Positions 1,005 through 4,741 of a DNA stretch of 11,765 nucleotides are shown one piece after another. Under the pieces are notes generated by a model. The model worked only from the letters and a program-made list of their open reading frames with translations, was not told the DNA's origin and made no database searches. A program made the position numbers and the translations under genes. The stretch is from Candidatus Thorarchaeota archaeon (GTDB taxonomy: Archaea > Asgardarchaeota > Thorarchaeia > Thorarchaeales > Thorarchaeaceae): positions 1-11,765 of the forward strand of contig JBHLRQ010000038.1 in NCBI GenBank assembly GCA_048882385.1. The letters run 5' to 3'. The stretch's first letter is position 1; every line of letters starts with the position of its first letter.

Positions 1005-1020
1005 CATACAACTTTTAGGA
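1005..1020 (+). promoter_or_regulatory. Putative BRE/TATA promoter of C/D sRNA 1
   Basis: CATACAACTTTTAGGA, repeated exactly at 1135-1150. The TTTTA core lies about 25-30 nt upstream of the sRNA 5' stem at 1042. Confidence 0.6.
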
Positions 1021-1041: not shown

Positions 1042-1117
1042 GTGGCATATCCGTGAGGCGGTTACCCCTGGCTGAGCTTCGGCAATGACGAGCCAAGAGC
1101 AAGCTGAGATTTGCCAC
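1042..1117 (+). ncRNA. Box C/D 2'-O-methylation guide sRNA 1
   Basis: Terminal stem GTGGCATATC/GATTTGCCAC; box C GTGAGGC (1053-1059); 12-nt guide GGTTACCCCTGG; box D' CTGA (1072-1075); GC-TTCG-GC hairpin; box C' ATGACGA (1085-1091); 12-nt guide GCCAAGAGCAAG; box D CTGA (1104-1107). Both box pairs fit K-turn geometry with a 3-nt bulge and tandem GA. Confidence 0.88.
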
Positions 1118-1134
1118 ATTATATTTCATGAATG

Positions 1135-1150
1135 CATACAACTTTTAGGA
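1135..1150 (+). promoter_or_regulatory. Putative BRE/TATA promoter of C/D sRNA 2
   Basis: Identical 16-mer CATACAACTTTTAGGA at a nearly identical distance upstream of the second sRNA (1170). Confidence 0.6.
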
Positions 1151-1169
1151 ATTGCACTTCTTTTTCACT

Positions 1170-1245
1170 GTGGCTAATCTGTGAAGCAGTTACCCCTGAC
1201 TGAGCAAAAGCTATGAAGACACGGTGAGCAGCTGAGATTTGCCAC
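1170..1245 (+). ncRNA. Box C/D 2'-O-methylation guide sRNA 2 (paralog of sRNA 1)
   Basis: Stem GTGGCTAATC/GATTTGCCAC; box C GTGAAGC (1181-1187); guide AGTTACCCCTGA; D' CTGA (1200-1203); GC-AAAA-GC; C' ATGAAGA (1213-1219); guide CACGGTGAGCAG; D CTGA (1232-1235). Same 76-nt length and box spacing as copy 1. Confidence 0.88.
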
Positions 1246-1859: not shown

Positions 1860-3353
1860 TTAGGGATTATACGCAAATGGATGCCTTGCAGAATCCTTCC
1901 TCCTAATGATTTCCTCAACACTATGCCTACCTTCAATAGCACGACGCAATGCATGTCGTGTAGATATGAAGTTGTTAATGTGGACACGAGTCGGATTTAC
2001 GGCACTTGGATGAACGAACACATTTACAGCAATAACCAGATCAGGAACCAGTTCCTCGGGTATGATTGCGTCTGTAATGGTCCGACGTATCGCATCAGAA
2101 ACAGCCTTCTGTGCAACGTCATAGACCATCTTCTTATGTTTCTCTGAAGTGATTGTCACTGTAGGAGCGAAGACAGTCTTCAGTTCTAGATTCTTGATTA
2201 TGTTTGAGGGGTGTGTGTCTTCAATAATTTTTCCTGCGTTTTCGAGTGCAAATCCTACTGGACCACTTCGCATTCCCATGACAAGGTCAACATGAGCAAT
2301 TTCACTGCCTCCTCCAAACAATGCTTCACCATGAAGTAATGTTAGATCTTTAACAACATCAGGTACCATGCCAACAGCTTTGGGATAGTTCTCACTTACG
2401 AGAGATCGGTCGCCCATCTTGAAGACTACTTCTCCTCTTGGAATCAGCTGAAGGTCTTCCAAACATGTTCTAATTTCATCATGCATGTCATATCCAAGAC
2501 TGTCACCTACTTGTAGCGGGAGCTTCGCTGGACCAACTGACACTCCCATCATATTGAGGGCTGCTTTCACGGCAAGACCTCCACCATTATTGACGAAAAT
2601 TCGAATGAGTTTCTGAATACTTCTCTGTATAATGAGAGCTTCTTTCAGATCACCGTTTGCGAGAGCAGCTTGCATTTTGATATATCGATCAGGAAAGACA
2701 TTTGCACTAGCTAGAATTGCACCATCACATCCCGATGCAAGAGCGGGTAATGCTACTTCATCATGACCAACAACAACCTGAAAGTGCTCGGGCTTTCGAA
2801 CAAGGATGGTTGTTAGATTGACAAGATCACCGCTGGAATCCTTCATCCCAATTATTCCATCAATATCTCTGAGCCCATCAACTAAGGTCCAGTGTATTGG
2901 TACACCAGTCACTTGAGGAATATTGTATACGAAGATAGGAATGTCACTATTGTTTGCAACTCGCTCAAAGTGATCATAAATCTCTTTGTCAGATGGTTTG
3001 AGGAAATATGGCGAAACAACAAGAGCTGCAGATGCTCCAAATTCTGCGGCTTTTCGTGTCAATTTGACAACGTCACCAGTATATGCAGCCCCGGTTCCAG
3101 CCATAACAGGGACTCGACCCTTAGCAGCGTCGCACGCTATTCTAATGCATTCAACTTTCTCATCAAATTTCATGCTAGTGAATTCACCAGTTGTACCACA
3201 AGGGACTATTCCAGTTGCTCCACTTTTTATGACATAGTCAATTAGTCGACGATACTGTTTTTCGTTTACACCATTTTCATCGAGTGGAGTCACAAGTGCT
3301 GGGTAAACACCCTGAAAGCGATATTCTCCTTCTGACACTTTGCTTACCTCCAT
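1860..3353 (-). CDS. DapA/DHDPS-family class I aldolase fused to a C-terminal formaldehyde-activating enzyme (Fae) domain
   Basis: N-terminal ~300 aa has GVYPALVTP, GTTGEF, YNIP and the Schiff-base Lys in GMKDSSG. The C-terminus has GEALFGGGSEIAHVDLVMG, VFVHP and a terminal RHPF, typical of Fae. The real start is probably GTG at 3338, preceded by GGAGGT. Confidence 0.88.
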   Translation of the reverse strand: MEVSKVSEGEYRFQGVYPALVTPLDENGVNEKQYRRLIDYVIKSGATGIVPCGTTGEFTSMKFDEKVECIRIACDAAKGRVPVMAGTGAAYTGDVVKLTRKAAEFGASAALVVSPYFLKPSDKEIYDHFERVANNSDIPIFVYNIPQVTGVPIHWTLVDGLRDIDGIIGMKDSSGDLVNLTTILVRKPEHFQVVVGHDEVALPALASGCDGAILASANVFPDRYIKMQAALANGDLKEALIIQRSIQKLIRIFVNNGGGLAVKAALNMMGVSVGPAKLPLQVGDSLGYDMHDEIRTCLEDLQLIPRGEVVFKMGDRSLVSENYPKAVGMVPDVVKDLTLLHGEALFGGGSEIAHVDLVMGMRSGPVGFALENAGKIIEDTHPSNIIKNLELKTVFAPTVTITSEKHKKMVYDVAQKAVSDAIRRTITDAIIPEELVPDLVIAVNVFVHPSAVNPTRVHINNFISTRHALRRAIEGRHSVEEIIRRKDSARHPFAYNP

Positions 3354-4741
3354 ATTCCTCCTAGCGCTGATTCCACAGCTTGCTGCGTAGCTGCTGTTAT
3401 CTCACGCCGATCTCTAAGGTTGAGATCAATATCTAGAGCCAAGATGGTAACATCATTGTTCACTGAATTCTTTGGAATCTTACCATCCTCCAAGAAGCCA
3501 GCAATAGCTTTGGCAGTTCCTGATTGTACAGGTCCGTAAAATAGAGAGGCTTGTCGCATAGACTCAATCTTTCTGATAGGCATCATGAGACTACTTGGTT
3601 TGACTGCAAGATTTGGCTCAAGAATTACTGTCAATGCCTCATATCCAATCTTGGGAGTTGTTAGAAGTTGAACAAAACTCCGACCAATCGGTCCATTTTT
3701 GGAACCAGTTACAATACCAACAGAAACAGTGGCATTCGATGCATTACTTGTTTTTATTGAGGGGGACTCTTCGATTCTAAGTCCTTGTTTGGAAAGTATG
3801 TCAAGAATCTGGATATCAGTGTTTACTGGTGAATGGGTTAGGTTTTCAATCAGACCCATTTTTTCAAGCTCTATTCGAATCTCTTCCTTAATCTCAGGAG
3901 TGAGTGTCCCACCAGTATTCAATGGCATTCTACTCTTTCCAGCTTTTATACCTAGCATTCTGAGTGCGGCTTTAACTGGAGGTGCTGCTCCAAATTTCAG
4001 TACCATTCTGGCAAAGGTCTGCGTAGTCCTTTGAAGCTCTGCAGCTTCCTCGATCTTACCTTCTTTTACTTTCTTCATGATATCCAACCAGAGATGAGGA
4101 ATTACATTGGCAGAAGCCATTATAGCTGCATTAGAACCTGCGATGACTGCAGACAGAAAGTTTTCATCAGCCCCACAGAGGACTTCCATCTTGCCTTTTA
4201 GTTTCTGGATCAATTCAAGTAGATATGGAACACTACCACTGCTATCTTTTATCCCAACAATGTTATCCAATTGAGCGAGATCTTCAACTACGTTCGTATT
4301 TAGAACTCCCAATGTGCATTGAGGAATATTATAGAGAATAATTGGGAGGTCACCTTTTCTTGCAATTGTAGCATAGTGTTCATAATAGCCCTTATCAGCT
4401 GGTCTCAGGTAGTAAGGAGAAATGACAAGAGCGGCGTCACAACCTAGATCAGCTGCATATTTTGTCAATTTGACTGTAGCATCGGTTGTATGTAATCCAG
4501 TTCCAGCAATTATTGGCACCCTCCCATCAACAAAATCTACAGTGATCTTTAGAAGCTTCTTTCGTTCTTCTGTCCTCATATAGGAGAACTCACCAGTTGT
4601 TCCAGCAGGAACTACTCCCGTGGCACCCTTATCAATGACATATTCAATGACCTGTTTGAAACCCTCTTCACTTATGTCGCCATCACGAGTGAATGGTGTC
4701 ACCAAGGCGGGCATAACACCTTGTGGTTTGAATCTACTCAC
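3344..4741 (-). CDS. DapA/DHDPS-family class I aldolase fused to a degenerate Fae-like domain
   Basis: GVMPALVTPF, GTTGEF, YNIP and GIKDSSG. The C-terminal GPIGRSF...GYEALTVILEPNLAVKPSSLMMP...LFYGPVQSGTAKAI matches the Fae core but lacks the AHIDL histidine motif. GTG start with GGTGAT SD. Confidence 0.85.
   Translation of the reverse strand: MSRFKPQGVMPALVTPFTRDGDISEEGFKQVIEYVIDKGATGVVPAGTTGEFSYMRTEERKKLLKITVDFVDGRVPIIAGTGLHTTDATVKLTKYAADLGCDAALVISPYYLRPADKGYYEHYATIARKGDLPIILYNIPQCTLGVLNTNVVEDLAQLDNIVGIKDSSGSVPYLLELIQKLKGKMEVLCGADENFLSAVIAGSNAAIMASANVIPHLWLDIMKKVKEGKIEEAAELQRTTQTFARMVLKFGAAPPVKAALRMLGIKAGKSRMPLNTGGTLTPEIKEEIRIELEKMGLIENLTHSPVNTDIQILDILSKQGLRIEESPSIKTSNASNATVSVGIVTGSKNGPIGRSFVQLLTTPKIGYEALTVILEPNLAVKPSSLMMPIRKIESMRQASLFYGPVQSGTAKAIAGFLEDGKIPKNSVNNDVTILALDIDLNLRDRREITAATQQAVESALGGIWR

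Follow-up and report, generated by a model that had tools for sequence, protein, structure and literature searches.

Archaea and eukaryotes share box C/D guide RNAs, and in the accessible part of Hoeppner and Poole (PMC3511168) individual families of small nucleolar RNAs (snoRNAs) are not traced across the divide. That part reports no significant similarity between the snoRNA families of the last common ancestor of eukaryotes (LECA) and archaeal small RNAs (sRNAs), and describes, from Pyrococcus and Sulfolobus, the positional equivalents sR12/snR70-SNORD43, sR36/SNORD60 and sR11/SNORD96 as well as snR52 (PMC3511168). Among the eukaryotic families, snR38 guides Gm2815 in yeast and, as snR38A/B/C, Gm4362 in humans (PMC8817022); elsewhere the yeast site is numbered 2812, and in Arabidopsis AtsnoR38Y guides Gm2805 (PMC3511168), and all of these guides are placed in Rfam RF00213. 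Human Cm4426 belongs to SNORD49A/B (PMC9941101). Here we describe two tandem genes, sR1 and sR2, in a stretch of 11,765 nucleotides (the window), which is contig JBHLRQ010000038.1 (C38) of a metagenome-assembled genome (MAG) of Thorarchaeota (3.7 Mb in 256 contigs, 42.7% G+C, 95.3% complete). The host belongs to the class Thorarchaeia of the Asgard archaea, to which eukaryotes are more closely related than to any other known archaea. Given their anatomy, their conservation, their complementarity to ribosomal RNA (rRNA), the covariation with that rRNA and the presence of the protein genes in the host, sR1 and sR2 are most probably canonical archaeal box C/D guide RNAs whose shared D' guide directs 2'-O-methylation of 23S rRNA at G2446.

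The shared D' guide and its match in 23S rRNA

Each gene spans 76 nt between its stem ends and contains four boxes and two guides, all four guides in the pair being exactly 12 nt long (Table 1). The motif GTTACCCCTG begins at 1061 and again at 1189, followed each time by one base and CTGA, and the D' guide of both copies takes the form GUUACCCCUG-N-CUGA; positions 1060-1203 run from the sR1 D' guide through the sR2 D' box. A preliminary description of this DNA had noted a guide common to both copies beside diverging D guides, and this is what the sequence contains (GCCAAGAGCAAG in sR1 vs. CACGGTGAGCAG in sR2). Both the UGA core and the position-6 G are retained in the C boxes, and the D box is CUGA. 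The k-turn-type pair between G at C-box position 6 and C at D-box position 1 is present in 29-30 of 30 homologues, and the neighbouring C-G pair in 26 of 30. A TATA-like element, AACTTTTAGG, lies about 25-27 nt 5' of the stem in each gene, related forms (ACAACTTATAGGA, CTTTCATAAGG) occur upstream of homologues within the genus, and a T-rich stretch is found 3' of each gene. As archaeal TATA boxes typically occupy this position upstream of a transcribed unit, we take the AACTTTTAGG elements to be putative promoters of sR1 and sR2.

In all statements on targets, rRNA genes of the same genus and class stand in for those of the host, and positions follow E. coli numbering, transferred through a gap-free alignment of E. 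coli 2430-2600 with Thorarchaeia 23S. Four same-genus 23S genes that are uninterrupted at the site (L007-L010) read CCAGGGGTAACA / CCCCAGGGGTAACAG, and a fifth, from G009, reads CCAGGGGTAA and then continues into an insertion. Throughout the class, all 27 of the 23S genes recovered from 87 genomes read CCAGGGGUAAC / ACCCCAGGGGTAACAG, with G at position 2448. Thorarchaeia 23S thus carries A2444, G2445-G2447 and G2448, compared with G2444-G2447 and A2448 in the E. coli rrl gene, where 2442-2453 are CCGGGGAUAACA and GGGGATAACAG starts at G2444. With the same-genus 23S, the sR1 D' guide pairs at 11 of 12 positions, all of them contiguous Watson-Crick pairs (2442-2452). The sR2 D' guide pairs at 10 of 12 positions with CAGGGGTAAC, again in a contiguous Watson-Crick run (2443-2452), and is mismatched at both ends. 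Counted upstream from the D' box, guide nucleotide 5 is a C, Watson-Crick paired with G2446 (N+5 rule). Nowhere else in the examined 16S and 23S genes is there a match with 11 contiguous Watson-Crick pairs.

The choice of G2446 had already been made in the preliminary description and holds when numbered on the E. coli rrl gene. The peptidyl-transferase motif that it gave as E. coli sequence, CAGGGAUAAC, was in error: that sequence complements the consensus guide of Rfam snoR38 and is of eukaryote type. From that motif followed a C-A mismatch at 2448, for which three ways out were offered; the first, a G at the host's 2448 equivalent, agrees with all 27 class genes, which come from relatives only. 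The mismatch vanishes because the 23S of the lineage has G2448, unlike E. coli and eukaryotes with their A2448, and the guide has C. No better perfect target, which the preliminary description had considered a possibility, turned up in the assembled genome or among 22 tRNAs. The perfect 10-mer occurs three times in the assembled host genome (7.1 expected), twice as the antisense of the genes themselves and once inside an 847-aa open reading frame (ORF) on contig C6, and no target was found among the 22 tRNAs that ARAGORN detected.

Across the phylum, we scanned 400 genomes and recovered the rRNA motif from 100. At position 2448 the catalytic centre is usually taken to have an invariable A; most of these Asgard 23S genes have G there (87/100), and 13 have A. 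By their letters at 2444/2448, 38 genomes are A/G (Thorarchaeia, f5, f7), 49 are G/G (f9, f20, f8, f15, f29, f30, f4, f33, and one genome each of f18, f24 and f25), 11 are G/A (f3, f13, f10, and one genome each of f18, f24 and f26) and two are A/A (f21, f22). Outside the class, bona fide C/D sRNAs with a guide for the G2446 site were found in three families. The guide of family f5 is GUUACCCCUG, and its own rRNA has A2444 and G2448. In family f18, ten of eleven pattern matches, from 11 near-complete genomes, were confirmed by eye as sRNAs; all have GUUAUCCCCG, and the rRNA has G2444 with either G or A at 2448. In family f8, represented by one genome (G031, 1/1), GUUAUCCCCG stands in the place of the D guide and the rRNA has G2444 and G2448. 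Opposite 2444, therefore, the guide has U where the rRNA has A (Thorarchaeia, f5) and C where it has G (f18, f8); opposite 2448 the guide carries C or U, so that the pair is G-C, G-U or A-U. Pairing was checked on the genome's own 23S for G165, G120, G121 and G031. Guides that track rRNA substitutions are expected of a real guide-target pair, not of an incidental match; as the lineages are few and related, this covariation provides qualitative support and is not a statistic. Further loci matched by chance and have neither boxes nor stems: L040 (G053), L060 (G156), L062/L063 (G291, G299), L173 (G172), L175-L177 (f9) and L181. They were kept out of the covariation argument and of the homologue alignment A1 introduced below.

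Several features of the rRNA around the site deserve mention in their own right. In the 23S genes L003 and L007-L011 the target forms the 3' arm of a near-perfect palindrome, (G/C)TTACCCC-N-GGGGTAAC, and the guide GUUACCCCUG (1061-1070, 1189-1198) is almost identical to the rRNA 5' flank of its target. With this likeness, the guide could compete with a local misfold of the rRNA or could stem from rDNA. In several Asgard 23S genes an insertion, probably an intron, interrupts the guide footprint immediately after GGGGTAA(C) (L012 in G009, L011 in G028, L104 in G120, L105 in G121); in G120 and G121 it is about 380 nt long, and in G121 the first base of the guide pairs with the first inserted base. 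In the 23S of G165 (L103), the interval from the site to helix 89 is longer by about 46 bases. Two sediment DNA runs cover the peptidyl-transferase site on the 23S of G014, with no other letters between places 3974 and 4259; they are not attributable to the host and are unused as evidence. Two further DNA runs gave no contig over that site.

Conservation, protein genes and surroundings

The pattern GTTAYCCCYGNCTGA occurs in 21 of 28 genomes of the genus, compared with two matches for the reversed control pattern, and the exact motif in 40 of the 87 class genomes. A covariance model, R1, was built from alignment A1, which holds 30 Thorarchaeia members out of 42 distinct sequences (12 from other families were excluded; L027 and L034 duplicate L035 and L024). 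R1 finds the family in 71/87 class genomes, 23/24 high-quality genomes and 16/17 genera, and in the host genome it finds exactly the two copies sR1 and sR2. The best 30 R1 matches fetched from genomes that the exact pattern had missed read UACCCCU (26), UAUCCCU (2) or other variants (2). Over the terminal stem, the C/D closing pairs and the mini-stem, 87.2% of cells in the 30 homologues are paired, vs. 25.7-46.7% with slid partners, and three pairs have changed on both sides (12 cells), a result reached in 2 of 500 shuffles.

The host genome encodes the proteins of a C/D ribonucleoprotein (RNP): genes for Nop5 (229.6 bits) and fibrillarin (291.4 bits) adjoin one another, and there are two L7Ae-family genes (93.7 bits), all over the Pfam cut-offs. 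A four-box regular expression matches four places in the 3.7-Mb genome, two of which are sR1 and sR2, and none in the reversed genome. In a stricter scan for four boxes plus stem, the sole further place in the host was G000:C153:1112-1168 (-), which has poor boxes (TTGA for both D' and D).

Sequences of the sR2 type (D guide ACGGUGAGCAG) occur elsewhere at second loci (L147-L153 and L155-L157, in G012, G003, G017, G023, G001, G015, G007, G057, G068 and G061), and all ten of these matches have a different D' guide and no peptidyl-transferase guide. Their D' guides include TAACAATACTAT, TATAATTACTGT and ATAGGTCTAATT; for TAACAATACTAT and similar D' guides of these RNAs no convincing rRNA target was found. 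In the window's species, G013 and a few others the sR2 type does have the G2446 guide, and to judge from this distribution paralogues within the class have evidently traded guides.

An sRNA gene stands 3' of an opposite-strand DHDPS-Fae gene at 22 of 32 Thorarchaeota loci, and several of the others end early on that side. The DHDPS-Fae fusion is itself kept across Thorarchaeota MAGs, and in the window it is present as two tandem paralogues followed by two adjoining large ORFs (Table 1). A short ORF overlapping sR2 on the opposite strand may get called as a gene by annotation pipelines.

Table 1 Features of the window (positions count from its first letter; 23S positions in E. coli numbering)
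Feature	Position	Strand	Remarks
sR1 TATA-like element AACTTTTAGG	1010..1019	+	read from sequence; centred about 27 nt 5' of stem
sR1 gene	1042..1117	+	R1 99.8 bits; Rfam snoR38 20.9 bits, best sub-threshold match
sR1 5' terminal-stem half GTGGCATATC	1042..1051	+	pairs with 1108-1117, one U-U mismatch; in minimum-energy fold
sR1 C box GTGAGGC	1053..1059	+	UGA core and G invariant in 30 homologues; family form RTGANGC
sR1 D' guide GGTTACCCCTGG	1060..1071	+	pairs with 23S 2442-2452; N+5 = G2446
sR1 D' box CTGA	1072..1075	+	invariant in 30 aligned homologues, all picked by a pattern containing CTGA
sR1 D'-C' spacer GCTTCGGCA, GC..GC mini-stem	1076..1084	+	G-C and C-G pairs invariant 30/30, loop variable
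sR1 C' box ATGACGA	1085..1091	+	read from sequence and homologue alignment
sR1 D guide GCCAAGAGCAAG	1092..1103	+	best rRNA match 23S 2506-2517; N+5 = C2510
sR1 D box CTGA	1104..1107	+	read from sequence and homologue alignment
sR1 3' terminal-stem half GATTTGCCAC	1108..1117	+	pairs with 1042-1051
sR2 TATA-like element AACTTTTAGG	1140..1149	+	identical to that of sR1
sR2 gene	1170..1245	+	same layout as sR1; R1 82.6 bits; Rfam snoR38 23.1 bits
sR2 5' terminal-stem half	1170..1179	+	10-bp stem with 1236-1245, one U-U mismatch
ORF, 81 aa	1174..1419	-	overlaps sR2 on opposite strand; no Pfam match; probably spurious
sR2 C box GTGAAGC	1181..1187	+	read from sequence
sR2 D' guide AGTTACCCCTGA	1188..1199	+	target as sR1; N+5 = G2446
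sR2 D' box CTGA	1200..1203	+	read from sequence
sR2 C' box ATGAAGA	1213..1219	+	read from sequence; short GC..GC spacer before C'
sR2 D guide CACGGTGAGCAG	1220..1231	+	best rRNA match 23S 2551-2562 (A loop); N+5 = U2555
sR2 D box CTGA	1232..1235	+	read from sequence
sR2 3' terminal-stem half	1236..1245	+	pairs with 1170-1179
DHDPS-Fae gene, first of two tandem paralogues	1860..3353	-	DHDPS-family domain fused to formaldehyde-activating enzyme (Fae) domain
DHDPS-Fae gene, second paralogue	3344..4741	-	same domain fusion
Large ORF, 818 aa	5175..7631	-	no Pfam match at E <= 0.001
Large ORF, 874 aa	7632..10256	-	no Pfam match at E <= 0.001

Second guides and alternative explanations

Matches of the D guides to rRNA were accepted at a run of at least 9 with at least 8 Watson-Crick pairs, and each guide has exactly one. 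The sR1 D guide pairs with its 23S target through 8 Watson-Crick and 2 G-U pairs, with 2 mismatches, and this is its sole rRNA match at a run of at least 9; the target lies 64 nt downstream of that of the D' guide. Across the family, the conserved part of the D guide is the core CCAAGAGC, and the family consensus, UCCAAGAGCAGG, is one base better paired than the sR1 guide. The D guide of family f18 (..GAAGAGCCGU) forms nine contiguous Watson-Crick pairs and would select C2510 too; a predicted double guide for G2446 and C2510 is thus common to two Asgard classes. The sR2 D guide makes nine contiguous Watson-Crick pairs with the A loop, 109 nt after the D' target. Shuffled D guides found a match within 150 nt of the D' site in 18/1000 and 27/1000 trials.

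If sR1 and sR2 act as these matches suggest, each would assemble with L7Ae, Nop5 and fibrillarin, and the shared D' guide would pair with 23S 2442/2443-2452 in the peptidyl-transferase ring. The ribose of G2446 would be placed in the fibrillarin active site and 2'-O-methylated, the same nucleotide that snR38/SNORD1 marks in eukaryotes, and the C of the guide would represent the lineage's answer to its own G2448. The D guides would pair 64 nt (sR1, C2510) and 109 nt (sR2, U2555) further along the same rRNA domain. Because of this proximity, each RNP could act as a clamp on two catalytic-centre strands while the 50S subunit assembles, serving as methylase and as folding chaperone.

A number of observations weigh against G2446-methylating guide RNAs. 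The host assembly contains neither 23S nor 16S rRNA, and the target sequence was taken from relatives; ARAGORN found 22 tRNAs only and possibly missed intron-bearing ones, among which a target may lie. Both C boxes, GUGAGGC and GUGAAGC, deviate from RUGAUGA at positions 5 and 7, and D' boxes of other genera are degenerate (CCGA, CAGA, CGGA, ATGA). Counting from box D, the D guide of sR1 is mismatched at positions 2 and 3. The family, its consensus included, keeps the A x G2508 mismatch at D-guide position 3; because of these mismatches near box D, methylation of C2510 by sR1 in the window's species is doubtful. The ends and expression of the RNAs are predicted from sequence, as are transcription, RNP assembly and methylation; the RNA runs searched yielded nothing for positions 900-1500, which counts neither for nor against expression. 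Finally, single-strand folding energies are unremarkable (z -1.04 and -1.47). Such values are usual among guide RNAs.

The alternative that best survives takes sR1 and sR2 to be genuine C/D sRNPs which, when bound to the peptidyl-transferase region of pre-23S rRNA, act mainly as folding chaperones or, in some lineages, assist around the intron that interrupts the site; G2446 would then be methylated little or not at all. The two guides of an RNA have binding sites no more than about 110 nt apart, many genera have kept the guide beside a degenerate D' box, and the D guide retains its mismatch near the methylation site. The Asgard 23S insertions that directly follow GGGGTAA(C) in the guide footprint, with the guide of G121 pairing to the first inserted base, fit the same picture, and conserved guide-target pairings for which no methylation would be expected are discussed in the accessible part of PMC6009581. 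However, both D' boxes of the window are canonical CTGA, the N+5 position is a Watson-Crick C-G pair with perfect pairing on either side, and eukaryotes methylate the same nucleotide by a guide in the same register. Chaperone action and methylation are, moreover, compatible, and a purely or mainly chaperoning role appears unlikely to us.

Could the shared D' guide be aimed at an RNA other than 23S rRNA (tRNA, mRNA or a non-coding RNA missing from the assembly), its match in 23S being incidental? The fragmented state of the host genome, a 256-contig MAG of 95.3% completeness with 22 tRNAs detected, leaves some room for this, as do the perfect 10-mer within the ORF on C6 and a perfect 12-bp match of the sR1 D guide (11 Watson-Crick pairs, one G-U) in an ORF on C24. 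These ORF matches are nevertheless at or below expected counts (10-mer, 3 vs. 7.1 expected; 11-mer, about 1.8 expected), and we judged both to be chance. The three sR1 D-guide bases nearest box D, needed for the match on C24, vary between species. The D' guide follows rRNA substitutions across four Asgard families, and we give the idea of a different target very little credence. That the elements are no functional RNAs at all, being chance box-like motifs or decaying duplicates, is very unlikely: although they are known from sequence alone, with non-canonical C boxes and weak folding z-scores, the family is present in 71/87 class and 23/24 high-quality genomes with invariant boxes, compensatory stem changes and conserved synteny, and four-box matches in the reversed genome number 0.

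Comparison with known guide RNAs

The pair shares with archaeal box C/D sRNAs, whose general features are given in PMC7994747, a length of about 55 nt from box to box (76 nt if the stem is included), the combination of C/D and C'/D' boxes, 12-nt guides, the N+5 rule, neighbouring targets in one rRNA domain, a putative promoter of its own and RNP protein genes in the genome. Unlike typical members, sR1 and sR2 have a C box of the form RUGANGC instead of RUGAUGA, their terminal stem is 10 bp long, a GC..GC mini-stem separates D' from C', and a pattern modelled on them finds only four places in the whole Thorarchaeote host genome. At gathering thresholds the window has no match in Rfam, and no archaeal sRNA family reaches its threshold.

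The top sub-threshold match of both genes is RF00213 (snoR38), at scores (Table 1) below the gathering score of 45; an AT-rich relative from family f5 (L160) reaches 40.2 bits (E 0.0017), still below 45. In the RF00213 alignment, CAGUUACCCCUGACUGA falls column for column under the consensus CAGUUAUCCCUGUCUGA. The preliminary description had given the snR38 guide as GUUAUCCCUG-U-CUGA and equated G2446 with yeast Gm2815, the snR38 site; the guide is that of the RF00213 consensus, the assignment of Gm2815 to snR38 is found in the table of PMC8817022, the equivalence with G2446 holds, and the likeness of the guide to snoR38 is confirmed by the Rfam alignment, if at sub-threshold scores. The complement of the consensus guide is ACAGGGAUAACU, whose N+5 nucleotide is the middle G of GGG, i.e., G2446 by motif alignment to E. 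coli. In snR38, SNORD1 and plant snoR38, as in sR1 and sR2, the first CUGA is preceded on its 5' side by the guide, which keeps the same register (GUUA[U/C]CCCUG-N-CUGA) and selects the same nucleotide, the G2446 equivalent. Unlike snR38, sR1 and sR2 have C instead of U opposite 2448, matching the G2448 of the lineage; they have a functional-looking second guide, are about 18 nt shorter between C box and guide in the Rfam alignment, and are independent genes, not intronic ones.

The preliminary description had spoken of an archaeal homolog or functional analog of this snoRNA family. Functional analogy to snR38/SNORD1 is well supported by the guide-rRNA covariation across Asgard families; homology is neither shown nor excluded by RF00213 as a best match under its gathering score. 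The likeness is no proof of descent, because the shared letters are those of the boxes and of a guide dictated by its target, a limit that is also stated for other archaeal-eukaryotic pairs (PMC3511168).

A second parallel concerns U49/SNORD49. C2510, the predicted site of the sR1 D guide and of the better-paired one of f18, lies +64 from G2446, as does human Cm4426 from Gm4362; the spacing is also 64 in Arabidopsis (Cm2869 of AtU49 and 2805) and Plasmodium (3240 and 3176). To judge from this spacing, C2510 would be the equivalent of the U49/SNORD49 site, an equivalence by arithmetic in which the E. coli-Thorarchaeia region is gap-free and the eukaryotic rRNA stands outside the alignment. Unlike in U49/SNORD49, pairing is weak in the window, and the eukaryotic guide resides on a separate snoRNA; Rfam SNORD49 (RF00277) gave no match. 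It is conceivable, if rather improbable, that the Asgard ancestor of eukaryotes carried a double-guide RNA, with a 5' guide for G2446 and a 3' guide for C2510, which survives in Thorarchaeia and at least one further Asgard family (f18), and that the LECA families snR38/SNORD1 and U49/SNORD49 are its direct descendants, split onto two single-guide snoRNAs. Were this so, a eukaryotic modification-guide snoRNA family could for the first time be followed by descent into Archaea.

Our literature search returned nothing on Asgard C/D sRNAs and no archaeal guide for the snR38 site, the supplementary target-site tables of PMC4644070 and PMC6009581, which may list one, being outside that search. Like the positional equivalents from Pyrococcus and Sulfolobus, sR1 and sR2 are archaeal sRNAs predicted to modify a position of a eukaryotic snoRNA family. 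Unlike those, they occur in Asgard archaea and show covariation between guide and rRNA, and snR38 is not among the equivalents given in the accessible part of PMC3511168. An Asgard sRNA family would thus aim at the snR38 site in the same register while following the substitutions of its own rRNA, and one RNA would combine the sites of two ancient eukaryotic snoRNA families (snR38 and U49, the U49 site by its spacing in animals and plants). This provides a rare testable link between archaeal and eukaryotic guides, and bears on whether some eukaryotic rRNA methylations, together with their guides, were inherited from the archaeal host.

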